From an uncultured Ignavibacteria bacterium (GTDB lineage Bacteria > Bacteroidota > Ignavibacteria > Ch128b): 64,000 nt of DNA. Below, piece after piece: positions 37,849-63,146 of this stretch; position 1 is the stretch's first letter; each line of letters begins with the position of its first letter. The notes below the pieces were generated by a model. That model saw nothing but the letters and a program-made list of their open reading frames with translations. It had not been told where the DNA came from and ran no database searches. The position numbers and the translations under genes were made by a program. The stretch spans positions 38,262-102,261 of the forward strand of contig CALDZP010000034.1 in assembly GCA_937944105.1 (NCBI GenBank), in the 5' to 3' direction.

Positions 37849-40134
37849 ATGAGTAGAATATATACATTATTTTTAATTGTAATTGTTTTGACTATTAATA
37901 GTTATTCCCAAATTAACACAGGTGAAATAAGAGGAAAGGTAATTGAAGCAAATAATAAACTTCCTATTCCTTTTGCAAATGTAATAGTTCTCGGAACAAA
38001 CATTGGTGCTTCAACTGATTTGCAAGGTAATTTTATTATTAAAAATGTTCCTGTAGGAATCTATCAAGTAAAAGCTTCGGTCATTGGTTATAATTCAGTT
38101 GTTAAAAGTGATGTTATGGTTAAATCTAATAAGATAACAGAAGTTGATTTTGAATTAGTTCAAAAGGTAATTGAAATTGATAATGTTGTTGTAAGAGCAG
38201 ATTATTTTGAAAAAAATTATTTAGAACCTGTAAGCGTTAGAAAATTTTCTCAAGAAGAAGTTAGAAGAAGTCCTGGTGGTTTCGAAGATGTTATTCGTGC
38301 CTTGAGTGTTTTGCCAGGAATAGCACAAGCAGATGCAGGTAGAAATGATCTAATTGTTCGTGGCGGTGCTCCTTCTGAAAATCTTTATGTAGTTGATGGT
38401 TTTGAAATACCAAATATAAATCATTTTGGTACTCAAGGTTCAACTGGTGGACCGATCAGTTTTATTAATCTCGATTTTGTTAAAGATGTTAGTTTTTCAA
38501 CTGGAGGATTTCCTGTTATTTATGGTGATAAAGTCTCTTCAACCTTAAATATAAATCTTCGAGAAGGTAATAATAGAAAATTTAATGGGAGAGGAACTCT
38601 TTCAGCTACTTTGTTTGGTTTTGATTTTGAAGGACCTGTTGTAAATGATAAACTATCAATGATTTTCTCAGCAAGAAGAAGTTATCTCGATTTTATCTTT
38701 AAAGCTGCAGGTTTTTCTTTTGTCCCTGAGTATTATGATATTTTAACAAAAGCTGATTATAAAATTGACAATAAAAATTCTGTGGGTTTTTTATTCATTA
38801 ATGCTATTGATAATGTAAAGTTTTTTAATGATAGTCCTGAAAAGAGAGTAAATAATTCAAGAATTCTTGGAAGTGATCAATTGCAATACGTATCCGGATT
38901 GAAATATCGTCGGTTATTTAGAGATGGATATATGGATTTGAAATTATACCGTAATTTCACTAAATATAATACGAGGCAAAGTGATTCATTACAGAATCCA
39001 ATATTTAAAAATATATCACTGGAAGAAGAAAATAATCTTCAGCTTGATGTAGTACATAAATTCTTCAAAAATCTTGAAATGAATTTTGGTATATCTTCTA
39101 AATTTATAGAATTCGATGCAGATATTTTATTCCCGAGTTTTGTTACATCACTAAAAGATACTTTACCCGATTTGAATTTAAACAAAAGTGAAAATTACTT
39201 TAAAGGGGCAACATATATTAATTTAAATTATCGAACATCAAATAAAATAATAACTAATTTTGGTTTGCGATTGGATTATTTTGATGCCATAAATAAAAAA
39301 TTTTATCTAAGTCCAAGATTTTCTGCTTCATATATTTTAAACGAATTTTTCTTTTTAAATTTTAGTGCGGGAATTTACAGACAATTTCCATCATACATAT
39401 GGCTTGTAGCCTATGATCAAAATAAAGATCTTAAAGCAATTAATGTAAACCAATTTGTACTAGGATTAGATTATTTATGGAGAGAAGATGCACAAATAAA
39501 AATCGAAGGATTTGTAAAAAATTATACTGATTATCCTGCAAGCTTAATAAGGCCATATTTAGTCCTAGCTAATACTGGTGCCGGTTTTTCAGGAAGTGAT
39601 GATAATTTCACTTCATTTGGCCTGGATCCATTGGTAAGTAAAGGTAAAGGCTTATCTCGAGGAGTTGAATTATCTGTCCAGAAGAAAATTTCGGAAATTC
39701 CCTGTTATGGAATTTTTAGTTTAACTTATTCCAAGTCAGACTTTTATGCACTTGATGGAATTAAGAGAAATAGTAATTACGATCAAAACTGGATAATTAA
39801 TTTAAGTGGTGGTTATAGATTTAATATGTACTGGGAAATTAGCACAAGATTTAGATTTTCTTCTGGTAGACCTTACACACCTTTTGATGATAATGGTATC
39901 CAGTACATATCAGAGGTAAATTCAAGAAGATTGAAATCAACACATTCTCTTGACATTCGCGTTGATAGAAGATGGTTATTGAAAAACTGGACTCTTATTA
40001 CATATATTGATATTCAAAATATATATAACAGGAGAAATTTAACCGGCATAAGATATGATAGAATTAAAGGTACAGTAGATGAGACTGCTTCAATAGGAAT
40101 TTTACCTTCAATAGGTATATTAGCTGAATTTTAA
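37849..40134 (+). CDS. TonB-dependent-receptor-like outer membrane protein with CarboxypepD_reg domain
   Basis: Signal peptide, CarbopepD_reg N-terminal, plug-like region, long beta-rich body ending in aromatic F. Confidence 0.6.
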   Translation: MSRIYTLFLIVIVLTINSYSQINTGEIRGKVIEANNKLPIPFANVIVLGTNIGASTDLQGNFIIKNVPVGIYQVKASVIGYNSVVKSDVMVKSNKITEVDFELVQKVIEIDNVVVRADYFEKNYLEPVSVRKFSQEEVRRSPGGFEDVIRALSVLPGIAQADAGRNDLIVRGGAPSENLYVVDGFEIPNINHFGTQGSTGGPISFINLDFVKDVSFSTGGFPVIYGDKVSSTLNINLREGNNRKFNGRGTLSATLFGFDFEGPVVNDKLSMIFSARRSYLDFIFKAAGFSFVPEYYDILTKADYKIDNKNSVGFLFINAIDNVKFFNDSPEKRVNNSRILGSDQLQYVSGLKYRRLFRDGYMDLKLYRNFTKYNTRQSDSLQNPIFKNISLEEENNLQLDVVHKFFKNLEMNFGISSKFIEFDADILFPSFVTSLKDTLPDLNLNKSENYFKGATYINLNYRTSNKIITNFGLRLDYFDAINKKFYLSPRFSASYILNEFFFLNFSAGIYRQFPSYIWLVAYDQNKDLKAINVNQFVLGLDYLWREDAQIKIEGFVKNYTDYPASLIRPYLVLANTGAGFSGSDDNFTSFGLDPLVSKGKGLSRGVELSVQKKISEIPCYGIFSLTYSKSDFYALDGIKRNSNYDQNWIINLSGGYRFNMYWEISTRFRFSSGRPYTPFDDNGIQYISEVNSRRLKSTHSLDIRVDRRWLLKNWTLITYIDIQNIYNRRNLTGIRYDRIKGTVDETASIGILPSIGILAEF

Positions 40135-47503: not shown

Positions 47504-48056
47504 TATTGTTTTTTGAAAAAACTCATAAAAACAACTTAATATTTTAAGAAATAAACACTTGTTTATTTCTAACCTTCGTTATTCTCGCCTTTATAGCCTT
47601 AACTTAATATTGAACATTCTTTTAAGTAAACTGATTTACAAATGCTAAATAAAGATATTTTTTAAATGTACAAAAGTTACAGCTAAGTAAAATAACTTAT
47701 GAATACCTTAAGTGTAATTTGACATTTATTTTTTATCCTTGAGTTTCTGTTACTTTCTCATAATGTATTTTATATTTATTGTAAGATTAAATTAACCACT
47801 GCTTAGATTCTTTCTTAATCAATTATCCGCGAAAAGAGAAACTCTAGATAATAGCATTTGGGTTATAATTTCCTTCAGCTGTCTAATATTAGCCAGTGCT
47901 TTTTAATAAAAACCTTCTTTTTTAGAGAAAAAAGAAGGCTTTACTTCTGGCACTTGGTTTGACTAATAAATTCTCAAATAGTTCATTTACAAAGATGAAT
48001 AAAAAAGTAATACTAAAATCACAAACATTTAATCACAAAACATAATGGAGGTTCAT

Positions 48057-48578
48057 ATGAAACGCTTAATTCTTTCACTAATTGTTCTTTCTTTTATTTC
48101 TTCTTTATCATATGCACAATCAAGTGCAAGTGCAACGGCAACCGTATTAGCTCAACTTAAGAAAGGACTTTCGGTTTCTCTCATTGGTGGAAATTTAAAT
48201 TTTGGTGAAATAATTCTGAATGGAAGTCCACAATCACCAACTATCGCTCCTTCTTCAGGTGCAAATTTCAGAGTAATCGGTCATCCAAATAAAAATATTA
48301 TGATTACTTTTAACAATGTGACTCTTGATAACAATGCTTGGGTAAGCAGCAATGGTGGAACAAATGGAACAATGGTATTTACTCCTGTTGTAAAGCATAC
48401 AGGATCGAACAGTTCTTATGATACCCCAACAGATGTTTTAAGCGGTAATTCTTATAATCTTGTAAATGTTTCAGGTGATGGTTATTTGTATTTATGGGTA
48501 GGTGGTTCACTCTCAATTGCTGCAAATCAACCTCATGGAGACTATACAGGAACATTTAGCATTACGGTTGCCTACTAA
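48057..48578 (+). CDS. Small secreted SCPU/CsuA-like (fimbrial-subunit-like) protein; stand-alone paralog of the 56.6-58.1 kb genes
   Basis: GGAGG 5 nt upstream of ATG 48057; signal peptide; shared motifs 'NFGEIIL', 'HTG.NS', 'LYLWVGGS', C-terminal 'GDYTGTFSITVAY'. Confidence 0.5.
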   Translation: MKRLILSLIVLSFISSLSYAQSSASATATVLAQLKKGLSVSLIGGNLNFGEIILNGSPQSPTIAPSSGANFRVIGHPNKNIMITFNNVTLDNNAWVSSNGGTNGTMVFTPVVKHTGSNSSYDTPTDVLSGNSYNLVNVSGDGYLYLWVGGSLSIAANQPHGDYTGTFSITVAY

Positions 48579-48598: not shown

Positions 48599-48630
48599 GC
48601 CCCAGAATTTTCCTGGGGCTTTTTTATTTT
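48599..48630 (+). terminator. Rho-independent terminator
   Basis: GCCCCAG-aattttc-CTGGGGC hairpin followed by TTTTTTATTTTT. Confidence 0.7.
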
Positions 48631-49289: not shown

Positions 49290-49500
49290 ACTCTTTTTGA
49301 TGTGAATGTTCTTTTCAATCGATGTGGATAAGTTGTGGAAATCGTTCCGCTGTGAAAAGTTTTCACATCAGGAATTTTAATCATAAAAGTTTTCCACATC
49401 AAATAATGTTAATTTCAAAACATTCTAAACCATAATTAATTGAATTACAATAACTTACGAAGATTATTTGATGTGGATAACTTGTGGATAATTTTTACTT
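49290..49500. other. Chromosomal replication origin (oriC) DnaA-box cluster
   Basis: Perfect TGTGGATAA (=TTATCCACA) at 49323-49331, 49472-49480 and 49483-49491; degenerate boxes TGTGGAAAT (49334), TTTTCCACA (49390), TTTTCACA and TGTGAATGT; AT-rich; directly upstream of dnaA. Confidence 0.7.
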
Positions 49501-49538
49501 AAACTTAAACTTTAAGTCATTCAACCAAGTTAAAATAA

Positions 49539-51047
49539 ATGGGTTTAAATATGAGTGTGGATAACTTACAAAATAAAAATAGTCAAAAAGTACTGATTAA
49601 AAACGATACAAAACAAAGAATTTTTAAAAATCCAGAGAAAGCAAAAGAAATTTGGAATTCTTTTATTGAGGTAATTAAGAAAAATATAAATGGTCTTTCT
49701 TTTAAAACTTGGTTCGAACCAATTGAACCAGTCGGTTTTGACAAAGATGAGTTAGTTATCAAAGTGCCAAATGATTTATCCTGGGATTATATTGAAGTGA
49801 ATTTTAATTCATTAATTAAAAAAGCTCTTTTAGCAGCATTGGGTGAAAATGGAAAGTTAACATATATATACGATACACAAAAAGATGAAACCTTAGAAAT
49901 AATTAAAGAAAATAAAGAATACTCCAAAGAAAAAATTAATAATGGTAATAACTCATGGTATCAGGGTGTAACTAAAAATATTAATTGGAACATTAATAGC
50001 TCAAAAGAGCAGGAGAATTTTGAAACAAATTTAAATGAGAAATTTACTTTTGATAATTTTATAAAAGGTGAAAGTAATCAATTTGCTCGTGCAGCAGCTT
50101 TTGCGGTAGCAAATTCACCTGGAGGGACTTCATTCAATCCTTTATTTATTTATGGAGGTGTTGGACTTGGAAAAACGCATCTTATTCAGGCAATTGGAAA
50201 TTATGTTGTGGAAAATAAAAAAGTTAAAAAAGTCTTGTATACTACTGCAGAGAAATTTACAACAGAATTTGTTGATTCAATAAAAAAAGGTAATACAAAT
50301 GAATTTACAGCGTTCTATCGAAAAGTTGATCTTTTAATTATAGATGATATTCAATTTTTATCAGGAAAGGAATCCACAACAGATACTTTCTTTCATATCT
50401 TTAATAGCCTTTATCAATTAGGTAAGCAAATTGTTCTTTCGTGTGATAAACCACCCAAGAGTTTATCGGGGATTGATGAAAGATTAATCTCAAGATTTCA
50501 ATGGGGCTTATCGGTTGATATTCAACCACCAGATTTTGAAACAAGGATAGCAATTCTTATCAAGAAGAGTGAGTCATTTAATCTTGATATTGATTTAAGT
50601 ATTCTCGAATACATTGCAGCAAACATAACAAATAATATTCGTGAACTTGAAGGCGCTTTGATAAAACTACTTGCAAAAGCATCTCTAGAGAACAGAGAAA
50701 TTACACTTGATCTTGCCAGAGAAATAGTAAAGTCTATTGCAACCGAAAAAAAGTCGACCCTTACAATTGATCAAATACAAAATATTGTGGCAGAATATTT
50801 TGGTTATTCCCCTGATGTTTTGATCTCTAAAACAAAGAAGAAAGAGTATGTTCTTGCGAGACAAATAGCTATGTATTTTGCAAAGAAATTTACAAATGCC
50901 TCTCTTAAAACTATCGGTTTGAACTTTGGTGGTCGTGATCATACAACTGTAATTCATGCGCTACAATGCATTGAAGAACAAATGAAAGATGATTCCTTTG
51001 TGGCTATGTTGAGTACAATTCAGGGAAAAATTGAATACAGAACTTGA
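49539..51047 (+). CDS. dnaA: Chromosomal replication initiator DnaA
   Basis: 'GGVGLGKTHLIQAIGN' Walker A, 'LIIDDIQFL', C-terminal DNA-binding 'VLARQIAMYFAKKFT...GGRDHTTVIHA'. Confidence 0.9.
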   Translation: MGLNMSVDNLQNKNSQKVLIKNDTKQRIFKNPEKAKEIWNSFIEVIKKNINGLSFKTWFEPIEPVGFDKDELVIKVPNDLSWDYIEVNFNSLIKKALLAALGENGKLTYIYDTQKDETLEIIKENKEYSKEKINNGNNSWYQGVTKNINWNINSSKEQENFETNLNEKFTFDNFIKGESNQFARAAAFAVANSPGGTSFNPLFIYGGVGLGKTHLIQAIGNYVVENKKVKKVLYTTAEKFTTEFVDSIKKGNTNEFTAFYRKVDLLIIDDIQFLSGKESTTDTFFHIFNSLYQLGKQIVLSCDKPPKSLSGIDERLISRFQWGLSVDIQPPDFETRIAILIKKSESFNLDIDLSILEYIAANITNNIRELEGALIKLLAKASLENREITLDLAREIVKSIATEKKSTLTIDQIQNIVAEYFGYSPDVLISKTKKKEYVLARQIAMYFAKKFTNASLKTIGLNFGGRDHTTVIHALQCIEEQMKDDSFVAMLSTIQGKIEYRT

Positions 51048-51979: not shown

Positions 51980-54769
51980 ATGAATTTAAATGTAAAACCT
52001 ATCGTAAAAAGCTTTAATAAAACATATTTAATTTTGTTATTCTTTTTCTCATTAATGAATGTTTACTCTCAATCAAAAGGTTCAATTATTGGAACAGTTA
52101 GAGATGAGGTGACTGGTGAGCCGATTATAGGAGCAAATGTTCTCTTAGAAAATACAAGTTTTGGGGCAGCTTCCGATTTAAATGGTAAATTTCAGATTCG
52201 TGATGTTGAAGAGGGGCTTTATAACATTAAAATAAGTCATGTTGCCTATCAAACAAAAATTATAACAAATGTTGAAGTTAAATCAAAAGAGGTTACACAA
52301 CTTAATATAACACTTTCCAGTAATGTACTTGAAACACAAGAAATATTAGTTGAAACTAAATCGGATAAATCATATGAGAATGCTTTGTTGAATTTGCGAA
52401 AAAATTCTCAAAACATTTTAGATGGGATTAGTGCAGAACAAATTAGAAGAACCACAGATGGTCTAACCAGCGATATATTAAAAAGAATTACTGGATTAAC
52501 GATTAACGAAAATAAGTTTGTCAATATAAGGGGTACAAGTGAAAGGTATAATGTAACACAGTTAAACAATTCCAATATTACCAGCACCGAATCGGAGAAA
52601 AAAGCGTTTTCATTTGATTTACTTTCCGCTAATCTTCTGGAATATGCTAATGTTATTAAATCTTATACTCCTGATTTACCAGCAAATTTTGCAGGGGGTG
52701 TAGTTCAACTAAATACAATAAGTTTTCCTGAATATCTTAGAGCTTCGGCTGGTTATTCTACATCATATTCAGAGGGCACATCATTAAAAAGTTTTTCAAC
52801 ATACGAAAATGGAACAAACTTTTTTGGATTTGATAATGGTAGTAGAAAATTACCGGAAAACTTTCCTGATAATTTAAATAAATCAGGTTTAAATCGAGAT
52901 CAAATAAATGAATTAGCTAAAAGTTTAAAAAACATTTGGCAAACTAAGTCAGTTAAAGCACCATTAAATCAAAGCTTTTATTTTACAATTGGTGATGGTA
53001 CCAGATTGATTGGCAGTCAATTTGGATTTGTTACGGCCTTTAGCTATAAAAATGATCATAGAAATTCTTTCATTAATTTGAATGAATATGAATCTTCTGG
53101 TGAGAAAAGATTTGAATATGAAGGTATCAAGTCTTCAAAATCCGTAAACCTTGGAGGTTTATTAAATTTAAGCTATAAATTTAGCGATAATCATTTAATC
53201 TCATGGAGAAACCTTTATTCTCATAGCTCCGATGATGAAGTATCTTTATTACATGGATATCAATACACAGATGCGGGCAAGGAACAAAAGCAAACTGCTA
53301 TTAGATATACAGAACGAGATCTTTTATCGGCGCAAATATTTGGTGAACACTTCTTTCAAAATTTAAATGGATTAAGAGTTGATTGGCGATTTAGTTTAAG
53401 TAACTCCAGAAAGTTAGAACCAGATTATAGAAGAATATATTATGGTAGAGATATAGGTGACGACGGACCGTTCTATGCAGTTCTTGGTTTTCAACCAAAT
53501 CTTAAAAATGGTGGAAGGTTTTTCTCAAACCTTCATGATAAATCAAGGGGTTTAGCCGTAGATTTTAGAACCAATTTGTATTTATTGAGATTTAAGTTTG
53601 GTTTTTCTTATGATGTTACTAAAAGAGATTTTGCTTCTAGATTAATAAGCGTTATAATTAATGCTCCAGGAAATGGTTATACTGATTTTTCATTATTAAC
53701 ACTTCCCCTCGACAAAATTTTTGGTCCAGAGAATTTCAGAAAAAATGGATTTTCAATTGATGAATATCAGAATGGAACAAACAATTATTCTGCCTCTGAG
53801 GAGGTCATTTCATCATACTTAATGACGGAAATCCCTTTTCATTTTGTGAATAAAGAGATAAAAATTTTTGGTGGTTTCAGAATGGAGAACTCTTTACAGA
53901 AAATTAATTCAATGGATGTTAGTGGAGAAATTCCAATTTCGAATTACCTGAAAAAAATTGATTATTTACCTTCCATAAATTTTTTAATTAAACTTAATGA
54001 TTTTACCAATGTCAGATTTTCATACAGCCAGACTTTGAATCGCCCGGAACTTCGGGAGTTAGCACCTTTTGCTTATTTTGATTTTGCAACACAAACTTCT
54101 ATTCGTGGTAATCCAGATTTACAAAGATCATTTATCAAAAATTATGATTTAAGAATAGAAAGCCTTCCTGGTTTGGGTAAATTGATTTCTGCAAATGTTT
54201 TCTATAAAAGCATCTCTAATGCTATAGAAAAGGTTGTTGTTACTGGTAGTGCGCTTGGTTCTGAAAGAACTTTTATGAATGCTGATAAAGCCGAGGTTTA
54301 CGGTTTTGAACTTGAAGGTAGAATATCATTCGGTTTTATTTCAGATTATCTTGAAAATTTATCAATAAATGGAAACTATACAAGAATAAATTCTTTTGTT
54401 AATGTCAGAGGTACTGAGACAACTATCTCAAGGGAAAAAAGACCACTTCAAGGACAATCTCCATATGTTATCAATTTCGGGATTTATTTTGTAGAACCAA
54501 GTTTGGGTAGTTCCTTCACAGTCAATTATAATAAAATAGGAAAAAGAATTGTCGAAGTTGCGACAGCTTATCAGGACGATATAATTGAAAAACCAAGAGA
54601 TGTTATCGACATTAAAATATCTCAGACAGTATTGAAAGGATTTAGTCTAAGCTTAGGGATTAAAGATTTGTTAGCTCAGGATTACGCATTTGTACAAGGT
54701 GATTTGCCGGCAAGAATAATAAAAGCAAATACAACTTACTCATTAGGAATTAATTATAAACTAAACTAA
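51980..54769 (+). CDS. TonB-dependent receptor family outer membrane protein (CarboxypepD_reg N-terminal)
   Basis: Signal peptide, 'GSIIGTVRDEVTGEPIIGANV' CarbopepD_reg, plug-like region, long beta-barrel body. Confidence 0.65.
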   Translation: MNLNVKPIVKSFNKTYLILLFFFSLMNVYSQSKGSIIGTVRDEVTGEPIIGANVLLENTSFGAASDLNGKFQIRDVEEGLYNIKISHVAYQTKIITNVEVKSKEVTQLNITLSSNVLETQEILVETKSDKSYENALLNLRKNSQNILDGISAEQIRRTTDGLTSDILKRITGLTINENKFVNIRGTSERYNVTQLNNSNITSTESEKKAFSFDLLSANLLEYANVIKSYTPDLPANFAGGVVQLNTISFPEYLRASAGYSTSYSEGTSLKSFSTYENGTNFFGFDNGSRKLPENFPDNLNKSGLNRDQINELAKSLKNIWQTKSVKAPLNQSFYFTIGDGTRLIGSQFGFVTAFSYKNDHRNSFINLNEYESSGEKRFEYEGIKSSKSVNLGGLLNLSYKFSDNHLISWRNLYSHSSDDEVSLLHGYQYTDAGKEQKQTAIRYTERDLLSAQIFGEHFFQNLNGLRVDWRFSLSNSRKLEPDYRRIYYGRDIGDDGPFYAVLGFQPNLKNGGRFFSNLHDKSRGLAVDFRTNLYLLRFKFGFSYDVTKRDFASRLISVIINAPGNGYTDFSLLTLPLDKIFGPENFRKNGFSIDEYQNGTNNYSASEEVISSYLMTEIPFHFVNKEIKIFGGFRMENSLQKINSMDVSGEIPISNYLKKIDYLPSINFLIKLNDFTNVRFSYSQTLNRPELRELAPFAYFDFATQTSIRGNPDLQRSFIKNYDLRIESLPGLGKLISANVFYKSISNAIEKVVVTGSALGSERTFMNADKAEVYGFELEGRISFGFISDYLENLSINGNYTRINSFVNVRGTETTISREKRPLQGQSPYVINFGIYFVEPSLGSSFTVNYNKIGKRIVEVATAYQDDIIEKPRDVIDIKISQTVLKGFSLSLGIKDLLAQDYAFVQGDLPARIIKANTTYSLGINYKLN

Positions 54770-54791: not shown

Positions 54792-56438
54792 ATGAAAAAT
54801 TTTAAAACATCACTTTTATCATTATTAATTTTATTCATTAGTCTACCTGTTCTAAATGTTTTTGCTCAATTAGCACCTGTAGATAGTATAATTCAAGGCA
54901 ACATAAATTCAAACGCTTATCTCTCAAGAACAAAAAAATATTTACTCCGTGGTTTTGTTAATGTAAATGAACCAGCAGTATTAACAATTGAACCGGGAAC
55001 TATTATTTACGGAGAAAAAGATTCTAAAGGTACTTTAATAATTAATCGTGGTGCAAAAATTATTGCAAATGGTACTAAGGAAAGTCCAATTGTTTTTACA
55101 AGTCAACAGCCTGTAGGGCAAAGAGGTCCTGGTGATTGGGGTGGAATAATTATAGCAGGAAAAGCAAGGATTAATGTTCCTGGAGGTACAGCTATAATCG
55201 AAGGAGGAACTGGAACAATTTATGGTGGTGGTGCTAATCCAGATGATAATGATAATAGTGGTATTCTTCGCTACGTTAGAATAGAATTCCCTGGAATTGC
55301 ATTTTTACCAGATAACGAAATTAATGGTTTAACACTTGGCGGAGTTGGGAAAGGAACAACTATTGAATATGTACAGGTAAGTTATTCAGGAGATGATTCT
55401 TTCGAATGGTTCGGTGGAAATGTTAATTGTCGTTATCTTGTGTCATTAAATGCTATAGATGACGATTTTGATATTGATTTTGGTTTTAGAGGAAATTTAC
55501 AATTTGGATTTGCTCTGAGAGATCCTAATTTGGCTGATATTAGTGGTTCAAACGGTTTTGAAACTGATAATGATGGAACTGGAACATATAACTCACCGAG
55601 AACTTTGCCAGTTATCTCAAATTTTACAGTAATAGGACCAATGAGTGATACATCTTTTACTGCATACAATCCAAACTTTAGACGAGGTGCTCACATTAGA
55701 AGAGCTGCTCAAACTTCAATCTATAATTCAATTGTAATGGGTTTCCCCGTTGGTTTGTTGCTTGATGGTTCTGCTGTTCGTTATGCGGCAGTGGGTGATA
55801 CTTTACAAATCAGAAATTCAATTTGGGCTGGGCTAAGAAAAAATAATGGAATAACAACAAATCAATCCGGTTTTAATGCTGAAGAGTGGTTTGATAATCC
55901 AACCTTTGGTAATCGTCGGTTTGTACAGTGCTCGCAAGTTGGTTTAATAGATCCTTTTAACTTGACTAACCCCAATCCTTTACCTTCAAGCAGTTCACCA
56001 GCAGTTAGTGGTGCAAGTTTTTCAAATCCTAGACTTTCTACATTTTTTACACAAACAACTTATGTTGGTGCTTTTAGTCCAACCGAACCAAGATGGGATG
56101 AAGGATGGACTAACTATAATCCACAATATACAAATTATGCAACCGGTGTAGATGAATATAATGTTTCAGTCAACTCATTTGAATTATTTCAAAATTATCC
56201 GAATCCATTTAACCCATCGACAAAAATTTCGTTTTCACTTCCTGAAAATGGTTTAACAACTTTAAAAATTTTCAATTCACTCGGTGAAGAAATTAAGACT
56301 CTGGTTAATGCTGAACTTGAAGCAGGAAAAATTTATACCGTTGAATTTAATGCTTCAGATTTATCCAGTGGAATTTACTTTGCAAAATTAAGTCAATCGA
56401 AGAACTTTAAAGTCATAAAGATGCTTTTGTCAAAATAA
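54792..56438 (+). CDS. Secreted Gly-rich beta-helix-like protein with T9SS C-terminal sorting domain
   Basis: Signal peptide; 'LFQNYPNPFNPSTKISF...GIYFAKL' CTD. Confidence 0.5.
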   Translation: MKNFKTSLLSLLILFISLPVLNVFAQLAPVDSIIQGNINSNAYLSRTKKYLLRGFVNVNEPAVLTIEPGTIIYGEKDSKGTLIINRGAKIIANGTKESPIVFTSQQPVGQRGPGDWGGIIIAGKARINVPGGTAIIEGGTGTIYGGGANPDDNDNSGILRYVRIEFPGIAFLPDNEINGLTLGGVGKGTTIEYVQVSYSGDDSFEWFGGNVNCRYLVSLNAIDDDFDIDFGFRGNLQFGFALRDPNLADISGSNGFETDNDGTGTYNSPRTLPVISNFTVIGPMSDTSFTAYNPNFRRGAHIRRAAQTSIYNSIVMGFPVGLLLDGSAVRYAAVGDTLQIRNSIWAGLRKNNGITTNQSGFNAEEWFDNPTFGNRRFVQCSQVGLIDPFNLTNPNPLPSSSSPAVSGASFSNPRLSTFFTQTTYVGAFSPTEPRWDEGWTNYNPQYTNYATGVDEYNVSVNSFELFQNYPNPFNPSTKISFSLPENGLTTLKIFNSLGEEIKTLVNAELEAGKIYTVEFNASDLSSGIYFAKLSQSKNFKVIKMLLSK

Positions 56439-56457
56439 TCTTAACTTGGTTGATATT

Positions 56458-56487
56458 ACCTGTATCTCCAGATATGGAGGTACAGGT
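56458..56487. other. 12-bp near-perfect hairpin between T9SS-cargo gene and fimbrial operon
   Basis: ACCTGTATCTCC-agatat-GGAGGTACAGGT (one G-U pair); no adjacent T-run. Confidence 0.4.
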
Positions 56488-56619
56488 AAACTTAATATTC
56501 AACATTTTTTATTTAGTAATTAATTACTTTGTTGCTGTAATTTAGATTAGCCATTTAATAATCCCAGACTTATTATTTATTATCATTCCTTTTTATTAAT
56601 TAATTTTTTAACTTTAATC

Positions 56620-57141
56620 ATGATTAGATTGATTAAACATACATTAATGTTTTTCCTAATGTATAACTTATGCATTGGACAACAGTATAACATTTCTGCA
56701 ACTGGACAGGTTAATATGATAAAACCACTTTCAATTACTTCGATTAACAGCACAATAAATTTTGGGGAAATTATCTTAAGTGGTTCTAATTTCATAAAAA
56801 GTCTGAGTCCATCGGAAGGAGCAATTTTTAAGATTGAGGGTCATCCAAATCGAAATGTAATAATTTCTTTTAACCCGGTGACTCTTTCCAATTCAGAATG
56901 GGTCGCTCAAAATGGTGGAACACTTGGTACGTTAAATTTTGAAGCAAATGTTGTTCATACTGGAGCGAATTCGTCTTATCAATCTCCTGTTTCTGTACAA
57001 AATGGAAATTCATATCAGCTTGTAAATTCGTCTGGTATAGGCATTTTGTATTTATGGGTTGGTGGTTCAATAAATATTCAAGCTAATCAGCCAGTAGGGG
57101 ATTACCAGGGAATATTCAGTATAATGGTATCTTATCAATGA
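56620..57141 (+). CDS. SCPU/CsuA-like fimbrial-subunit-like secreted protein (paralog 1 of operon)
   Basis: Signal peptide; 'INFGEIILSGS', 'HTGANSSY', 'LYLWVGGS', C-terminal 'GDYQGIFSIMVSY'; about 45% identical to the 48057 paralog. Confidence 0.5.
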   Translation: MIRLIKHTLMFFLMYNLCIGQQYNISATGQVNMIKPLSITSINSTINFGEIILSGSNFIKSLSPSEGAIFKIEGHPNRNVIISFNPVTLSNSEWVAQNGGTLGTLNFEANVVHTGANSSYQSPVSVQNGNSYQLVNSSGIGILYLWVGGSINIQANQPVGDYQGIFSIMVSYQ

Positions 57142-57650
57142 AAAAATATATTTTAATGATTTTATTTTTTCTTTTTTCAGTTGATTGTTGGAGTCAGACT
57201 AATGAAACAGCGAGCCTTAATATAAGAGCTTCGCTAAAGAGAGGGATCAGTGTTCTTAATCAAAATAACATTTTAAGTTTTGGGGAAATTATTTTGTCAG
57301 GTTCATCTTTTGAATTAAATAAATCACCTCAAGAAGGATTAAGATTTAAGATTTTTTCAGATCCAGCAAAACCTGTTATGATAAGTTATAGTAATGTTGA
57401 GTTAAATTTATCAACTAATTCTGGGAATTTGACAAATGATAATTTACTTTTTGTTCCGAAGGTTTATCATACTGGTGGTAATTCTGATTTTATAGATCCA
57501 GTTGAAGTATTTTCTGGAATTTATTATCAACCACAAAATCAATCTGGTGAAGGTATTTTAAATTTATGGATTGGAGGAACACTTAAAATAAGTCAGTCAA
57601 ATATTCAAGGTGATTATTCAGGCACACTTATAATAACAATTGCATATTAA
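57138..57650 (+). CDS. SCPU/CsuA-like fimbrial-subunit-like secreted protein (paralog 2)
   Basis: Signal peptide; 'SFGEIILSGS', 'YHTGGNS', 'LNLWIGGT', C-terminal 'GDYSGTLIITIAY'; 4-nt overlap with the upstream gene. Confidence 0.5.
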   Translation: MKKYILMILFFLFSVDCWSQTNETASLNIRASLKRGISVLNQNNILSFGEIILSGSSFELNKSPQEGLRFKIFSDPAKPVMISYSNVELNLSTNSGNLTNDNLLFVPKVYHTGGNSDFIDPVEVFSGIYYQPQNQSGEGILNLWIGGTLKISQSNIQGDYSGTLIITIAY

Positions 57651-58116
57651 AATGATGAAAATTCGATTTTATATTTATGTTATAGTTTTTATAATTCTTT
57701 CATATAGTTGTGGCTTCGGTCAATTAATTATTCAAAAAATTAATGATTTAGATTTTGGTGATGTATTTATTGGTTATTCTGCCACGGTGAGTGATCTTTC
57801 ACCAAATGCTGCAAAATTTTTAGTTTATCAAAATTCACAACCACGAGTGGATTTACTTGTTAAATTTACTTTACCTTCTCAACTCACTAATGGGCAAAAT
57901 TCAGTCTCAATAGATTTTAATAATTTTGCTTCATGGGCAAGAGATGATGTTCAGACTGGCAGAATTTACTTTAATCCATATTCTCCTGTATTAATTAAAA
58001 ATGTACGTAGAAATAGGTATCATTATATCTGGTTGGGAGGGACAATTATGAGTTCTTCTGATATCTTACCTGGTTTATATACAGGAACAATCATTCTAAC
58101 TGTAGAGGTATTGTAG
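57640..58116 (+). CDS. Divergent SCPU-like small secreted protein (paralog 3; minor subunit or adaptor candidate)
   Basis: Signal peptide; 'DFGDVFIG', 'IWLGGT', C-terminal 'GLYTGTIILTVEVL'. Confidence 0.4.
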   Translation: MHIKMMKIRFYIYVIVFIILSYSCGFGQLIIQKINDLDFGDVFIGYSATVSDLSPNAAKFLVYQNSQPRVDLLVKFTLPSQLTNGQNSVSIDFNNFASWARDDVQTGRIYFNPYSPVLIKNVRRNRYHYIWLGGTIMSSSDILPGLYTGTIILTVEVL

Positions 58117-58117
58117 T

Positions 58118-58948
58118 ATGAAAAGAAAAATAATTGTTTTAATTACTTTTTATTTTGTTAGTAATTTGTATTCTCAAATTTTAATTTCACCTTATATTGT
58201 TTACACAGATAATAAGAATAAAATAGGCAATTTTATCGTTCAAAATGAATCAGAAAATATCTATGAAATAAATGTAGGATTTCTTTTTGGTTATCCTGTA
58301 TCAGACTCAATAGGACAAATTTCAATGAAATATATTGAGAATGATTCATCTTATTCTTACTCAATAAATAATTTTATTAGAGCATTCCCTAAAAAATTTA
58401 TTCTTGAACCCAAGAAACGACAGATTGTTCGTTTAACAGTAAAAGCTCCAGATACACTTGCAAATGGAACTTACTGGACAAGAATAATTACCTCAGCGGT
58501 GCCTTATTCAGAACAGATAGATTCAATTTCGAGTGGCTTGACAGCAAAAATTAAATTTGTCTTGAATCAGGTAACGACTTGTATGTACCGAGTTAATCCA
58601 GCGGAAAGTGGACTAAAGGTTGAAAACCATGAAGTGAAATATGATTCGAACACAACTACTTTAGTATTAAATTTAAAAAGAGTTGGCAACTCACCTTTTA
58701 TTGGAAATCTTTTAATGAAAATCCTTGACGAAGAGGGTAATGTCATCAAAGAATTAATTGAGTATGTTCCAGTATATTTTGATCTTCAAAAAAGGTTTGT
58801 TTTTAATAATTCAGATTTCGAACCAAACAAAAGTTATATTATCCAAATAACCGCAAGTAATATCGAAAAAGAAGAAATTCCTGAAAGTACTTTAAAGGTA
58901 GTGGTAGTTCCTGAATTAAAGATCCCAATAGAAATTCCATTTAATTAA
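58118..58948 (+). CDS. Periplasmic fimbrial-chaperone-like (PapD/CsuC-like) protein
   Basis: Signal peptide; 'ISPYIVYTD...NFIVQNESENIYEINV' resembles the chaperone N-domain (RxIY...vxN) and 'FILEPKKRQIVRLTV' the PPlFrL block; about 270 aa, typical size. Confidence 0.45.
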   Translation: MKRKIIVLITFYFVSNLYSQILISPYIVYTDNKNKIGNFIVQNESENIYEINVGFLFGYPVSDSIGQISMKYIENDSSYSYSINNFIRAFPKKFILEPKKRQIVRLTVKAPDTLANGTYWTRIITSAVPYSEQIDSISSGLTAKIKFVLNQVTTCMYRVNPAESGLKVENHEVKYDSNTTTLVLNLKRVGNSPFIGNLLMKILDEEGNVIKELIEYVPVYFDLQKRFVFNNSDFEPNKSYIIQITASNIEKEEIPESTLKVVVVPELKIPIEIPFN

Positions 58949-58953
58949 AAGTT

Positions 58954-61900
58954 ATGTTCTGCTTGCTCTTAATATTTTTGAGTTTTTTGGACGTTTATAT
59001 TACCTCTGATTATCCTACTACAAATGTTTATACTTCAAACATTGAATTTTTCTATGCACGTAATTTCCAAGATGAAACTGAAATTGAAGTGATTAATAAT
59101 CTAAATCCGACGCTAAGATGGTTCAAAGTAAATGATGCTATTAAGTATTTAATAGTAATCAATGAATTTGAAGGAAATAATTTGAAATCAAAACCAGTAA
59201 TTATTCGTTACTTTGAGGTACAGGATACATTTTTTGTTATTCCATCTCTAATCCTTGAAGATGGGAAAATATATAGTTGGAATGTAAGGTCATTTAACGG
59301 AAAGCTATGGAGTAATTTTGGAAAAGAATTTTATTTTAAAGTATTCTTAAAAGATTCGAAAGCTCAATCTGATGATAAAACAATAAGTACAATTTCTCCT
59401 GGCAAACTGTCTCCAGAAATTGAATTAATAAACACCATTAACCCAGTATTTAAGTGGTTCAAAATTAAATCGGCAGATTATTATAATTTTATTCTTGAAA
59501 AAGAAGAAAAGCCGGGGAGTTACAAAAAAATTTTATCCTCAGAAAATTTTGGTACAATAAGTGATACTTTTCTTATTCTGCAGGGTAGTCTACTTAAACA
59601 GGGAAATTTATATCGATGGAGAGTTTGGTGTAAAAACAAATTCGGTTTGTTATTGAAATCAGATTATAGATACTTTAAAGTTTCTTTACCAAAAATTTTA
59701 GTTGTACCTGAACCGATTTACCCAGGATATTCTTCTGAAGGGAAAGAAATACTGGCTACCACAACTCCAACATTTATATGGGGGAAAAATCCTTCAGCAA
59801 GTTCTTATTCAGTTGCAATAAGTAAGAAAGATTCTGATGGGAAATACAGACTTATTTTTGACAGTGAAAAAAATTTTAAGATAATAGATACATTCTTCAT
59901 TTTACCTCCCAATATTATTGAGAATAATTCGGAATACAGGTGGAATCTAAAAGTGAATTTGAAAGATGGAAGAACTCTCTACTCAAAAAGATTATATTTC
60001 AAAGTGATTTTTGAAGAACAAAAAACATTGGAAAAGTTTATCCAGAATGAAAGCACTAAAAATGAATTGGAAGAATTTTCATTGAATATGGAATATGCTG
60101 GTATATTTAAAAATCTTGTTTCATCAATCTACCTTGATGAAAAAATATTTATTTCGCTTTCAGAATTTTTATCGAATCTGCAAATTCCATTTGAAAAAAA
60201 GGGAAAAAATATATTCACAGGTTACATTAATGATGATAAAAATAATTTTACAATTGATTTTACTCAAAACAGAATAAAAAAGCAGGGGATTGAATTAAAA
60301 ATCAATCCAGAAGATTTCATCGAATATAATGAAGATTATTTTGTATCAACTTCCTTTTGTGAAAAATTTTTACCTCTTAAATTAGAATTTGATTTTTCTA
60401 ATCTTACCTTAAGCGTTTTAAGTGAAGTAGTATTACCCGTTTATTCTAAATATATTATTGAACAAAGATTGACATCATTAAGAAAAAATGAAAAAGTAAA
60501 AACACTACCTCTTCTTTTCAATAGAGAAAGATATTTACTTAATGGTTTTATTTTAGATTACTCTTTATCTCAAACTTATGTAAAGCATCAAAGAAGCGGA
60601 TACTTTTACAGACTTGCCTTTGGTGGTGAGCTACTTTATGGGGATTTTTATTATTCTCGTCAGCAATTTTTCTCTCAGAATTTTAAAAGTAACGTTGAAG
60701 ATATTAATTGGAAATTTATTTTTAATCCGAACAAATATATTACTCAAATTTCACTCGGTGATAATTTTATTGATGCAATTAACATTTACACATATCGTGG
60801 ATTTATGTTGACAAATGAAGTCGTTGAACCACGAAAAAAAATTGGCAATTATATTTTTCAAGATAAAACAGATCCGAGCAGCTTAGTGGAGTTGTATATA
60901 AATAATGAGTTATATGATATAAAAAGATCAAATGAAAATGGTGATTTTTCATTTGAGATTCCATTGAATTACGGAATGTCCAACCTCGAATTAAGAATTC
61001 ATACATTAATGGGAGAAACAAAAAGTCTTCGAAGAGTTTTCCAGATTCCTTATGAATTTTTACCAGCAGGTATTTTCAATTATAAAACCACTGCTGGTGT
61101 AATAAAGTTTACAAATAAAAAATTTGCATACTCTGAATTTAGTTACGGTATTGCTGATTATTTTACTCTTGCTACAGGTGGAGAATTTATTTATGATTCT
61201 ACAAATAAATATCTAAACTACTTTGGAAAATCTTCTTTCAGAATTTTGCCTAATTTCTATTTAAACCTATTCTACTCACCAAAGATTTTTACAAAAATTC
61301 AAGGTTCATATATAGGATCTAATTTTACTTCTTATAGTTTCGAATATATTGACAATAAAAATCATAAATTTTATAACCCATCAAGAATTAATAAATCATA
61401 TAAAGGTAGCTTCTTTTTACCATTGAAACTCGAAAATAATGAGCTGGGATTTTATTTTAATCAAGAATATTTTAAGTCAGATTTCATCAAAAGATATAAT
61501 ATAAATGTCAATGCTTTTTATCTATACAAATGGTTGGCTTTCAATCTTGGAATTATAAATGAGAATCTTTACTCTAACATAAAAATAATTAGAAGAGAAA
61601 TAACAGGTGGAACTAACATTAATTTTAATACATTTACAAATAGTAACTCAATTTTGAATCGAAGTTATTTATCAATTCGTGCTAATTACAACCTTTTAGT
61701 AAAAGATTTTCAAAGTCTCTCTGTTTTCGCAGCCACAACATTTCTAAATAGTATTAGATTTCAAATAAGTTTTGAAAGATTATTTAAGATTAATGTTACT
61801 AATGTAAGTGTAAATTTATTTTTAGATCTTCCGCAAGCAAGATATTTCGTTAATTCAAATTTAAAAGATGTAATCAATCAACAAATAAGTGGATCGATTG

Positions 61901-62532
61901 GTTATAGTTCACAAATAAATCAACTATATCTTTACAGCGAACCACAAATTGGTCGCTCAGCAATTTATATTGAAGGCTTTGAAGATAGAAATATGAATGA
62001 AAAAAAAGATGGAAATGAGAACATTGTCAAAGATTTAAATTTCTCTATTAATTCTGCATCATATTCTAAAAATTTAAAAGATGGGAAGCTAATTTTAGGT
62101 TTGAATCAATATCAAGAATATAGTTTAAGAGTTATAGATTTTAGAATGAGTGAATTAAATTTATCTACTGAGTTTTCAGAATTTAAGCTCTTAACCGATG
62201 GAAATAGAATAAAAGTAATTAGATTACCTTTTTATGAAACTGGGGAAATTGGCGGATTGGTTCTTCGTAATATTAAGAATGAAGAGATCCCAGTTCGTAA
62301 TGTGAAAATTATAATTACGAATTTATCGACTCAAAAAGAATACATTATTAATACGTTCAGTGACGGTTCGTTTTATTTATACGGGTTAAGGAAAGGAAAA
62401 TATGTAATAAGAGTTGATGAGAATTATTTAAATCGTCATTCTTTGAAATCAAATCCTGAACAAATTGAACTTGAAATTGACCCAACAAAGAATCAACTAA
62501 TCTTTGAAGAATTAAAATTTACTCTGTATTAA
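58954..62532 (+). CDS. Outer-membrane usher-like protein, unusually large (1192 aa)
   Basis: 'VELYINNELYDIKRSNENGDFSFEIPLNYGMSNLELRIH...FQIPYE' aligns with the conserved usher block (VyvNg...GpF.i..lp..G.n.l.v...G....f.vP); beta-rich body; C-terminal beta-sandwich (CarbopepD_reg-like); three N-terminal W-rich repeats of about 100 aa. Confidence 0.5.
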   Translation: MFCLLLIFLSFLDVYITSDYPTTNVYTSNIEFFYARNFQDETEIEVINNLNPTLRWFKVNDAIKYLIVINEFEGNNLKSKPVIIRYFEVQDTFFVIPSLILEDGKIYSWNVRSFNGKLWSNFGKEFYFKVFLKDSKAQSDDKTISTISPGKLSPEIELINTINPVFKWFKIKSADYYNFILEKEEKPGSYKKILSSENFGTISDTFLILQGSLLKQGNLYRWRVWCKNKFGLLLKSDYRYFKVSLPKILVVPEPIYPGYSSEGKEILATTTPTFIWGKNPSASSYSVAISKKDSDGKYRLIFDSEKNFKIIDTFFILPPNIIENNSEYRWNLKVNLKDGRTLYSKRLYFKVIFEEQKTLEKFIQNESTKNELEEFSLNMEYAGIFKNLVSSIYLDEKIFISLSEFLSNLQIPFEKKGKNIFTGYINDDKNNFTIDFTQNRIKKQGIELKINPEDFIEYNEDYFVSTSFCEKFLPLKLEFDFSNLTLSVLSEVVLPVYSKYIIEQRLTSLRKNEKVKTLPLLFNRERYLLNGFILDYSLSQTYVKHQRSGYFYRLAFGGELLYGDFYYSRQQFFSQNFKSNVEDINWKFIFNPNKYITQISLGDNFIDAINIYTYRGFMLTNEVVEPRKKIGNYIFQDKTDPSSLVELYINNELYDIKRSNENGDFSFEIPLNYGMSNLELRIHTLMGETKSLRRVFQIPYEFLPAGIFNYKTTAGVIKFTNKKFAYSEFSYGIADYFTLATGGEFIYDSTNKYLNYFGKSSFRILPNFYLNLFYSPKIFTKIQGSYIGSNFTSYSFEYIDNKNHKFYNPSRINKSYKGSFFLPLKLENNELGFYFNQEYFKSDFIKRYNINVNAFYLYKWLAFNLGIINENLYSNIKIIRREITGGTNINFNTFTNSNSILNRSYLSIRANYNLLVKDFQSLSVFAATTFLNSIRFQISFERLFKINVTNVSVNLFLDLPQARYFVNSNLKDVINQQISGSIGYSSQINQLYLYSEPQIGRSAIYIEGFEDRNMNEKKDGNENIVKDLNFSINSASYSKNLKDGKLILGLNQYQEYSLRVIDFRMSELNLSTEFSEFKLLTDGNRIKVIRLPFYETGEIGGLVLRNIKNEEIPVRNVKIIITNLSTQKEYIINTFSDGSFYLYGLRKGKYVIRVDENYLNRHSLKSNPEQIELEIDPTKNQLIFEELKFTLY

Positions 62533-62612: not shown

Positions 62613-63146
62613 ATGAATAAAAATTCGAATAATAGTGTAATATTTTTTATCCCTGAAAATAAATTCCATGATCTTGAGTTTTTAATTACTAAATCAATTC
62701 TTGAAAAAAATAATATTAAAGTCTTTATTTCATCTGAGAGTAGAAATCTTTCCACTGGTCATTTTGGTTTACGAGTTAAACCAGATGTTTATCTTTATAA
62801 TATTCACCCTGAGAATTTTAAAGCAATTGTTTTAATTGGTGGAGCAGGCACGAGAAATTACTGGAAAAACGATTTACTAATTAAAGTCGTTAAAAACTTT
62901 CATTTTAAGAAAAAAATTGTTGCAGCTATTTGTAGTGCTGTTGGAATTTTAGCATCGGCAGAATTGTTAAAAGGGAAAAAAGTGACTTGTTATTCAAACG
63001 ATGTAGAAACAATTAAATCATCAGGCGCTTTAATAACTCAAAATCTAATTGAAGTAGATAATAATATTATCACCGCATCAGGACCAGAAGCAGCCGAACT
63101 TTTCGGTAAAGTTTTAAGTGAAATTATAAACAAGGAATTGAGGTAA
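62613..63146 (+). CDS. DJ-1/PfpI-family protein
   Basis: 'AAICSAVGILASAELLKGKKVTCY' nucleophile-elbow Cys; 'ITASGPEAA'. Confidence 0.7.
   Translation: MNKNSNNSVIFFIPENKFHDLEFLITKSILEKNNIKVFISSESRNLSTGHFGLRVKPDVYLYNIHPENFKAIVLIGGAGTRNYWKNDLLIKVVKNFHFKKKIVAAICSAVGILASAELLKGKKVTCYSNDVETIKSSGALITQNLIEVDNNIITASGPEAAELFGKVLSEIINKELR

Follow-up and report, generated by a model that had tools for sequence, protein, structure and literature searches.

We analysed a 64-kb window of DNA, the whole stretch to which all coordinates below refer, and found that five adjacent genes at 56620-62532 probably encode a complete, very divergent chaperone-usher fibre-assembly system, whose nearest known relatives are the archaic, Csu-type (sigma) pili. 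We put the probability of this reading at about 0.8, because the modelled chaperone and usher folds, homology to sigma-type proteins, hallmark residues and conserved synteny all point to it. Chaperone-usher pili are textbook machinery of adhesion and biofilm formation, and studies of them have, to our knowledge, been confined almost entirely to Proteobacteria. The window (G+C ~29%) has Ignavibacterium and metagenome-assembled genomes of Ignavibacteria as its closest named relatives; the Ignavibacteria/Melioribacteraceae lineage is known for the type IX secretion system (T9SS) and type V pili. A first-pass annotation of this DNA had proposed a chaperone-usher-like operon with SCPU/CsuA-like subunits, nearest to the archaic sigma type, and this proposal is upheld, through structure prediction and profile-profile comparison only.

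Candidate subunit, chaperone and usher genes

The five genes of the operon are co-directional on the + strand, and the table of open reading frames places all of them where the first-pass annotation had put them; neighbouring genes overlap by 4-11 nt or sit 1-5 nt apart. Gene 1 (56620-57141; 173 aa) and gene 2 (57138-57650; 170 aa) encode DUF4402 pilin paralogs, in each of which a signal peptide precedes a putative donor strand (NISATGQVNMIK and TASLNIRASLKR, respectively), and gene 3 (57640-58116; 158 aa when read from a TTG) encodes a divergent DUF4402-like subunit. The product of gene 4 (58118-58948; 276 aa) is a predicted periplasmic chaperone with two immunoglobulin (Ig)-like domains, and that of gene 5 (58954-62532; 1192 aa) is a predicted outer-membrane usher homolog with an N-terminal triple of FN3-like domains. 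A fourth DUF4402 gene, which we call the lone paralog, lies apart from the operon at 48057-48578, also on the + strand; in its 173-aa product a signal peptide is followed by a putative donor strand (SSASATATVLAQLKK), and the C-terminus reads ...GDYTGTFSITVAY. By tblastn, the inventory of the 64-kb window is four subunit genes, one chaperone gene and one usher gene.

Ushers of known structure (FimD and PapC) consist of an N-terminal domain, a beta-barrel whose sixth strand is followed by the inserted plug, and a pair of C-terminal domains (CTD1 and CTD2). Our AlphaFold model of the gene 5 product is of moderate quality (predicted local distance difference test score, pLDDT, 68; predicted template-modelling score, pTM, 0.39) and has a clear domain order, with all domains encoded on the + strand. 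Three FN3 / Ig_Rha78A_N-like domains of ~93 aa each (residues 44-351; 59083-60006), seen in a repeat alignment, in the model and as FN3 arrays in Foldseek, precede an alpha/beta N-terminal domain (residues 373-508; 60070-60477) that is present in the model and is covered by the Foldseek alignment to full-length FimD. The predicted translocation barrel (residues 529-1010; 60538-61983) then opens with six strands (529-620), which are followed by a plug-like beta-sandwich (residues 629-698; 60838-61047) and by ~18 more strands (708-1010), and the model ends in two beta-sandwich domains in the position of CTD1 and CTD2 (residues 1029-1191; 62038-62526). The plug, supported by both the model and hhalign, contains VELYINNELYDIKRSNENGDFSFEIPLNYGMSNLELRI, and the block VELYINNELYD...LELRI, picked out at first reading as a conserved usher block, falls at residues 645-683 within it; hhalign sets this block on the plug domain of FimD (VTIKQNGYDIYNSTVPPGPFTINDIY...LQVTIKE).

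Structural comparison of this model with Foldseek returned FimD or PapC for all of the top twelve matches. The best match was FimD (3rfz_B; expectation value, E, 2e-23 over 912 columns), and PapC reached 8e-19; these alignments are full-length and include the N-terminal domain, the plug and the C-terminal domains. When isolated translocation domains were compared with the model, target-normalised TM-scores were 0.4-0.5.

We also compared the wider usher family, represented by a profile of 35 aligned members, with reference alignments from five sigma-type, csu-like operons carried on plasmids of Acinetobacter, Burkholderia, Klebsiella, Novosphingobium and Paracoccus. The family profile matched the sigma-usher alignment over 504 columns (hhalign 96.3%, E 1.7e-9; positions 576-1149 against CsuD 223-791), and each of the five sigma ushers, taken singly, matched the plug-centred region of the profile with P values from 1e-6 to 5e-4. 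Against single ushers the profile gave P values of 9.8e-7 for CsuD, 4.5e-4 for FimD and 0.16 for EcpC; in a comparison with EcpC at P 0.0034, the C-terminal part of the family profile aligned co-linearly. Reversed-sequence controls for the profile comparisons gave P values of 0.5-0.8 (0.58 for the usher). Sigma ushers match FimD at 2e-24 in hhalign, as opposed to 1.7e-9 between our family and the sigma ushers; the family thus stands at a greater distance from sigma ushers than separates these from the classical ones, and this speaks for a place outside the Pfam-Usher group. Among the 35 relatives only two match the Usher model (~1e-3) and one matches PapC_N (0.039), while the C-terminal part of 33 has a CarboxypepD_reg-like match. 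These data suggest that gene 5 encodes an usher homolog with a clade-specific N-terminal addition.

The FN3 triple is regarded as clade-specific because most family members (~860 aa) match only profile positions 370-1197. A word-indexed search found only 15 close homologs of gene 5, and the orthologs P0004 and P0010 match PF25788 in the FN3 region. Family members of ~1150-1490 aa (P0186-P0214 and others) carry an extra C-terminal region of 300-600 aa instead of the FN3 triple. Giant repeat proteins, too, contain the FN3 / Ig_Rha78A_N-like repeat of gene 5; P0168 has 31 stretches that match it.

For gene 4, an AlphaFold (AF2) model built with 31 homologs was of higher confidence (pLDDT 86.7; pTM 0.77) and consists of two beta-sandwich (tandem Ig) domains, with a low-confidence, disordered loop at residues 130-148 that is placed at F1-G1. 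Foldseek found 320 matches below 1e-3 in the Protein Data Bank (PDB), mostly pilus chaperones of all three classes: CsuC (6fjy_A; 1.6e-9) and EcpB (5dfk; 2e-9), and also FimC, CfaA, Caf1M and PapD. CsuC, EcpB, FimC and CfaA all stand within the top seven, where the other places include ranks 1 and 4, both held by WxLIP. Two IMG records name homologs of gene 4 'P pilus assembly chaperone PapD'.

The residues that mark non-classical pilus chaperones can be followed into gene 4. Its A1 strand ILISPYIVY, at the mature N-terminus, aligns with the CsuC A1 strand FLIWPIYP, P25 falling on Pro7; the kink proline P91 aligns with CsuC Pro59, and R122 with CsuC Arg89. Similarly, I145, F147, L149 and Q151 of the putative G1 strand (KIKFVLNQ) align with the CsuC G1 donor residues V110, F112, M114 and Y116. 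A separate alignment to Escherichia coli EcpB placed P91 on Pro60 and R122 on Arg89, and both P91 and R122 are invariant across the 31 homologs. This proline is the sole residue invariant throughout the chaperone-usher superfamily, and the arginine, which anchors the C-terminal carboxylate of the subunit, marks archaic and alternative chaperones (PMC4654587, Pakharukova et al. 2015). The non-classical signature further includes a Tyr/Arg pair of domain 2, for which equivalents of Tyr196 and Arg174 could not be mapped; Y240, Y220 and R188 are candidates. From the model and these alignments, gene 4 appears to encode a pilus-chaperone homolog with two Ig-like domains and the non-classical Pro/Arg hallmarks.

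The paralogy of the small proteins, also claimed at first reading, is far above chance: in tblastn the lone paralog matches gene 1 with 52% identity (E 1.5e-50), gene 2 with 41% (E 1e-35) and gene 3 with 27% (E 1.5e-4). Three of the four exceed the Pfam gathering threshold of 25.2 bits for DUF4402 (PF14352), namely the lone paralog (44.4 bits, E 3.2e-11), gene 1 (30.3 bits, E 7.6e-7) and gene 2 (27.9 bits, E 4.3e-6), and gene 3 falls below it (15.8 bits, E 0.022). The motifs said to be shared among them, NFGEIILxGS, HTGxNS, LYLWVGGS and GDYxGTFxITVxY, are present in the lone paralog and in genes 1 and 2; gene 3 carries them only loosely (DFGDVFIGYS ... YIWLGGT ... GLYTGTIILTVEVL). Signal peptides are visible in the subunits, with cleavage predicted after AQ, SQ or GQ, and the mature DUF4402 subunits contain no cysteine. 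One subunit homolog is named 'Mat/Ecp fimbriae major subunit' by IMG.

A profile of 32 aligned DUF4402 proteins matched a profile of 11 annotated SCPU/Csu subunits from end to end (hhalign 96.2%, E 2.1e-9, 147 columns). The segment that follows the signal peptide in the lone paralog, SSASATATVLAQLKK, has a small or hydrophobic residue at alternate positions and is strongly conserved in the 32 homologs; hhalign aligns it onto the N-terminal extension of CsuA/B, in register with the donor strand, so that V34, A36 and L38 of the DUF4402 subunit fall on the CsuA/B donor residues Val8, Leu10 and Ile12. Mutating these three CsuA/B residues together abolishes polymerisation (PMC4654587). Likewise, the L-N/D-F-G of DUF4402 subunits aligns with L-N-F-G of CsuA/B, and the C-terminus GDYTGTFSITVAY falls on CsuA/B GDYKDTLLVTVNF. 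These alignments suggest that the small proteins are SCPU-like pilins, presumably with the groove of an incomplete Ig fold, and genes 1 and 2 are candidates for minor or adaptor subunits. Gene 1 has orthologs at the equivalent position in two related loci, L005 and L007, and gene 2 has orthologs in four, L004-L007.

Gene 3 departs from this pattern at both ends. Its start is likelier to be the ATG at 57652, two bases past the stop of gene 2, than the TTG at 57640. In the paralog alignment it is without the N-terminal donor segment of ~15 residues, and the mature N-terminus leads straight into the strand preceding D-F-G (QLIIQKINDLDFG); the C-terminus reads TVEVL, as opposed to VAY in the other subunits. 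A gene of this extension-less type lies immediately upstream of the chaperone gene in seven of seven loci, including the distant L002 (Melioribacteraceae) and L014 (metagenomic). The product can apparently accept a strand and not donate one, and would therefore be incorporated first, at the distal end; we consider it a candidate tip or initiator subunit, in place of CsuE. A lipoprotein reading of gene 3 was rejected, as the cysteine in its signal region lies outside any lipobox and is missing in several orthologs, among them those of L002 and L005-L007.

The solitary position of the fourth paralog, its ribosome-binding site and its terminator are as the first-pass annotation described them. 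GGAGG stands at 48048-48052, 5 nt ahead of the ATG, and 20 nt past the stop codon a GC-rich hairpin (GCCCCAG...CTGGGGC; 48599-48619) is followed by a run of T. The lone paralog is also the most conserved component, with 88% identity to the copy on the L005 contig, compared with 55% for the usher and 72% for the chaperone. Because the gene is monocistronic, is preceded by the strongest ribosome-binding site, ends at a terminator of its own and shows the highest conservation, its product is a candidate for the bulk, or major rod, subunit. A tblastn search of PLSDB plasmids with the lone paralog found no match.

Proposed assembly and alternative readings

In the pathway that we propose, the four DUF4402 proteins would be exported by Sec, and the chaperone would cap each of them in the periplasm by donor-strand complementation through two of its strands, A1 (ILISPYIVY) and G1 (KIKFVLNQ). 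Arg122 of the chaperone would fix the carboxylate at the subunit's C-terminus (...VAY-COOH), in the manner of CsuC Arg89; both contacts are predictions. If the usher works as its homologs do, chaperone-subunit complexes would dock on its N-terminal domain, for which residues 373-508 are the putative site, and the plug would be displaced. The usher would then catalyse donor-strand exchange, in which the chaperone strand seated in one subunit gives way to the N-terminal segment of the next subunit to arrive, and the growing fibre would be extruded through the barrel. The gene 3 product would be assembled first, at the distal tip, followed by the products of genes 1 and 2 and then by many copies of the lone paralog. 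The three FN3-like domains at the N-terminus of the usher (residues 44-351) are presumably periplasmic accessories.

Several results weigh against a chaperone-usher system. None of the 32 DUF4402 family members matches SCPU (PF05229) in Pfam, where all 32 match DUF4402; CsuA/B itself matched the SCPU model at 3.8e-22. Gene 4 did not match PapD_N/C, and gene 5 did not match Usher (PF00577) or PapC_N/C, in Pfam at E <= 1, nor did either gene find a match in NCBIfam; the scans of both genes gave only sub-threshold noise (WxLIP_PGBD, DUF928, CarboxypepD_reg, EcpR and PipX). The top Foldseek match of gene 4 is WxLIP, a Gram-positive surface protein (9i1y_B, E 3.3e-10), and a weak Pfam match to WxLIP_PGBD (E 0.0019) accompanies it. 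The gene 4 profile matched the five sigma chaperones over all of domain 1, and did so weakly (hhalign 29.8%, P 5.6e-4). Searches of PDB sequences, by phmmer with a subunit, the chaperone and the usher and by hmmsearch with the chaperone and subunit profiles, returned nothing meaningful. Lastly, the csu gene order that the first-pass annotation saw mirrored here is kept for the pilins, the chaperone and the usher, but not beyond: a gene for a CsuE-like two-domain tip adhesin (~320-340 aa, SCPU), found downstream of the usher gene in all five reference sigma operons, is absent after the usher in the window and in the related loci.

The first-pass annotation had offered searches with hidden Markov models among its tests and a lack of matches as one refutation. 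The outcome was mixed: three of the four small proteins matched DUF4402 significantly, and SCPU, PapD_N/C, Usher and PapC_N/C gave no match. Taken literally, half of that refutation was observed. Given these mixed results, the question was settled by fold and by profile-profile comparison, and both favour a chaperone-usher system.

Within such a system, the part played by the lone paralog can be read in another way. It lies 8 kb from the operon, with dnaA, a T9SS cargo gene and genes for a methyltransferase and a TonB-dependent receptor in between, and in L002 and L014 every DUF4402 gene is inside the operon; these observations would suit a lone paralog that acts alone or with other machinery, leaving genes 1-3 as the only source of operon fibres. 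We think this unlikely, because it is the paralog nearest to gene 1 (52% identity) and keeps both the donor segment and the C-terminal strand, and because the 64-kb window, the part of the genome covered here, encodes no second chaperone or usher.

The nature of the product can also be read differently. Protein U of Myxococcus is the founding SCPU protein, and the Caf1 capsule of Yersinia offers a second example of a product other than a discrete adhesive pilus; the machinery at our locus could be real and yet make an amorphous or sheet-like polymer or coat of this kind. The locus has no dedicated gene for a two-domain adhesin and encodes single-domain subunits only, and its subunits have homologs in the SCPU family, a name that goes back to a spore-coat protein (PMC8047123). 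Against a polymer or coat stand four differentiated subunit types, the conservation of the donor-strand-less type, and a subunit that is separately expressed and highly conserved. These features bring the locus closer to the Csu division into tip, adaptor and rod than to a single-subunit capsule, and we regard a polymer or coat as improbable.

That there is no assembly system at all, gene 5 being a generic porin or transporter barrel, gene 4 a WxLIP-type Ig protein and the small proteins independent of both, would fit the silence of the Pfam Usher and PapD models, the name 'carboxypeptidase regulatory-like domain-containing protein' that NCBI gives to relatives, and the place of WxLIP at the head of the gene 4 Foldseek list, but is very hard to reconcile with the match to full-length ushers (E 2e-23), the plug-centred profile match to sigma ushers (E 1.7e-9, with the reversed control at P 0.58), the invariant chaperone hallmarks, the full-length alignment of the subunits to Csu pilins and the strict co-location of subunits, chaperone and usher in all loci examined.

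Conservation, neighbourhood and wider meaning

An exhaustive search of representative proteins with the usher profile returned 6709 matches at E <= 1e-3, of which 930 reached E <= 1e-30; counted as clusters at 50% identity that score below E 1e-30, the family has at least 930 members. Where names are given, they are 'hypothetical protein' or 'carboxypeptidase regulatory-like domain-containing protein'. A profile search of genome contigs found four close Ignavibacteria loci (L004-L007). The complete order of genes 1, 2 and 3, chaperone and usher is present in two of these other genomes (L005 and L007), and the remaining two loci (L004 and L006), which start at a contig end, either within gene 2 or at it, keep the equivalent order from there on. 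Across the four, identities are 52-55% for the usher, 65-72% for the chaperone and 53-73% for gene 3. Rosettibacter primus, a cultured bacterium, also has a homolog.

Farther away, the Melioribacteraceae locus L002 has three DUF4402 genes, an extra small gene, a gene of the gene-3 type, a chaperone gene and a gene for a 1090-aa usher. Two metagenomic loci of the wider family, whose ushers (849 and 874 aa) are without the FN3 triple, show an equivalent arrangement, again with more subunit genes, and in every locus examined the subunits, chaperone and usher are strictly co-located. The extra gene of L002 (6148-6594), between the DUF4402 genes and the gene-3 type, encodes a 148-aa secreted protein that has no Pfam match and no BLAST match to the subunits of the window; it ends ...SITIIY, which is pilin-like.

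Directly upstream of the operon, at 54792-56438, lies a T9SS cargo gene (Por_Secre_tail, E 4.5e-9); of the T9SS that the first-pass annotation ascribed to this genome, it is cargo genes that were seen. The product of a second gene, at 34038-35534, has a T9SS sorting-like C-terminus of 86 residues (35277-35531) that is 50% identical to that of the 54792-56438 product. The adjacency may be chance in cargo-rich genomes, or may mark a functional link between routes of surface display. In the wider family, two unrelated loci (L003, 1-4819; L015, 1-2142) likewise have, immediately upstream, T9SS cargo genes that encode large adhesin-like proteins with Ig repeats.

Between the cargo gene and gene 1, the + strand region 56456-56619 consists of a hairpin and an AT-rich intergenic stretch. 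The hairpin (56456-56489), directly after the cargo gene, is unusually long, with a 15-bp stem, a 4-nt loop and only a weak run of T; it may be the terminator of the cargo gene or a regulatory element ahead of the operon. The AT-rich stretch of 130 nt presumably holds the operon promoter, and sigma-70-like promoter matches in it were not above shuffled expectation. Downstream of the usher, a gene of the DJ-1/PfpI family (62613-63146; E 7.7e-33) follows both here and in L004-L007, and has no obvious relation to pilus assembly.

Between the lone paralog and the operon, dnaA (49539-51047; Pfam Bac_DnaA, 2.4e-69) has at its 5' end a cluster of four perfect DnaA boxes (TTATCCACA; 49323-49564), which are all that the window contains. 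This cluster is probably the replication origin region. The lone paralog would lie ~0.8 kb and the operon ~7 kb from it, and a high gene dosage is therefore expected for both in growing cells. The TonB-dependent receptor gene at 51980-54769 has an N-terminal CarboxypepD_reg domain and lies upstream of the T9SS cargo gene, a pairing that recurs in synteny in L005 and L007. Another receptor-like open reading frame (37849-40134) is 32% identical to this receptor over 160 aa.

The locus brings to light an extensive family, so far without annotation, in which usher, chaperone and DUF4402 genes form triads in Ignavibacteria and Melioribacteraceae. We found no description of DUF4402/PF14352, or of chaperone-usher systems in Ignavibacteria or Bacteroidota, in the searchable literature, a corpus that leaves most subscription journals outside, so that the absence is not proof. 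If our reading is confirmed, DUF4402 would acquire the role of a pilin, the usher superfamily would grow by several thousand 'hypothetical' outer-membrane proteins, and very distant sequences would become available with which to sort the universal features of donor-strand assembly. The pilins would, moreover, be free of cysteine, which may suit anaerobic or thermophilic periplasms. A well-understood mechanism would thereby be extended to a new lineage; no new principle, or mechanism new in kind, is involved.

It is also conceivable, and we suggest it tentatively, that these loci form a fourth deep chaperone-usher branch beside the classical, alternate and archaic ones, widespread in Ignavibacteria and in bacteria of the Fibrobacteres-Chlorobi-Bacteroidetes (FCB) superphylum. 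Such a branch would be marked by pilins of the DUF4402 type, by a chaperone and an usher that curated models miss, by a donor-less single-domain tip in place of a lectin-type adhesin, and by ushers extended with periplasmic FN3 arrays. Were this so, chaperone-usher systems and the T9SS would coexist as routes of surface display in the FCB superphylum, and donor-strand fibre assembly would be older and broader in origin than the Proteobacteria-centred view holds.

Comparison with known systems

The WxLIP proteins of Gram-positive cocci resemble gene 4 in Ig fold only. Gene 4, by contrast, is fixed beside an usher homolog in a diderm and carries the sequence hallmarks of pilus chaperones; a WxL-type surface complex was ruled out on the grounds that the host is a diderm with an usher homolog.

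With classical pili (type 1, Fim; P pili, Pap) the locus shares the usher architecture, for which FimD and PapC are the best structural matches and with whose plug motif gene 5 aligns, as well as the tandem-Ig fold of the chaperone. Sequence similarity to classical components was not detectable with hhalign for the chaperone against FimC (P 0.23) or for the subunits against FimA (P 0.2). The predicted carboxylate anchor of gene 4 also differs, being an arginine of strand F1 and not the classical Arg/Lys pair (PMC4654587). Taken singly, the classical and alternate sequences FimC, FimA, EcpA and EcpB gave noise in hhalign, and the comparisons became informative only with the sigma-type reference alignments.

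The alternate (alpha) pili, ECP (EcpA-E) and CFA/I, are similar in their chaperones: the fold of gene 4 matches EcpB and CfaA, and the equivalents of Pro60 and Arg89 are kept. The profile links to this class, however, are at noise level (subunits against EcpA, P 0.01-0.02; usher against EcpC, P 0.003-0.16), and an EcpD-like large adhesin and a second chaperone are absent from the locus in the window.

The most extensive likeness is to the Csu-type archaic pili. The two systems share the order of several small paralogous pilins, a chaperone and an usher, and the homology of the DUF4402 subunits to SCPU pilins appears to extend over the full length, from the donor segment at the N-terminus to the G-D-Y...T-V-x-aromatic strand at the C-terminus. 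Sigma ushers are the best profile match of the gene 5 family. Gene 4 shares with its Csu counterparts the A1 motif h-L-I-x-P, the kink proline, the carboxylate-anchor arginine and the alternating G1 strand (PMC4654587).

The differences from Csu are nevertheless several. The subunits belong to DUF4402 and not to SCPU, their homology being visible only when profile is compared with profile, and the two cysteines of CsuA/B are at positions where DUF4402 has Leu and Ile. The chaperone and usher are invisible to the Pfam PapD and Usher models. The host, one of the Ignavibacteria (Bacteroidota/FCB), lies outside the phyla in which archaic systems are listed, namely Proteobacteria, Cyanobacteria and Deinococcus-Thermus only (PMC4654587). 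Here, the short donor-strand-less subunit before the chaperone takes the place of CsuE, the usher bears three extra N-terminal FN3-like domains, and the gene for the probable major subunit is unlinked. In the scheme of Nuccio and Baumler, the sigma clade is reportedly defined by usher-sequence phylogeny. Among known classes, the system is nearest to archaic sigma pili by every profile comparison, and in view of the missing SCPU domain, the silent Usher and PapD models, the missing CsuE-type adhesin and the distance of its usher from sigma ushers we would file it outside the sigma clade.

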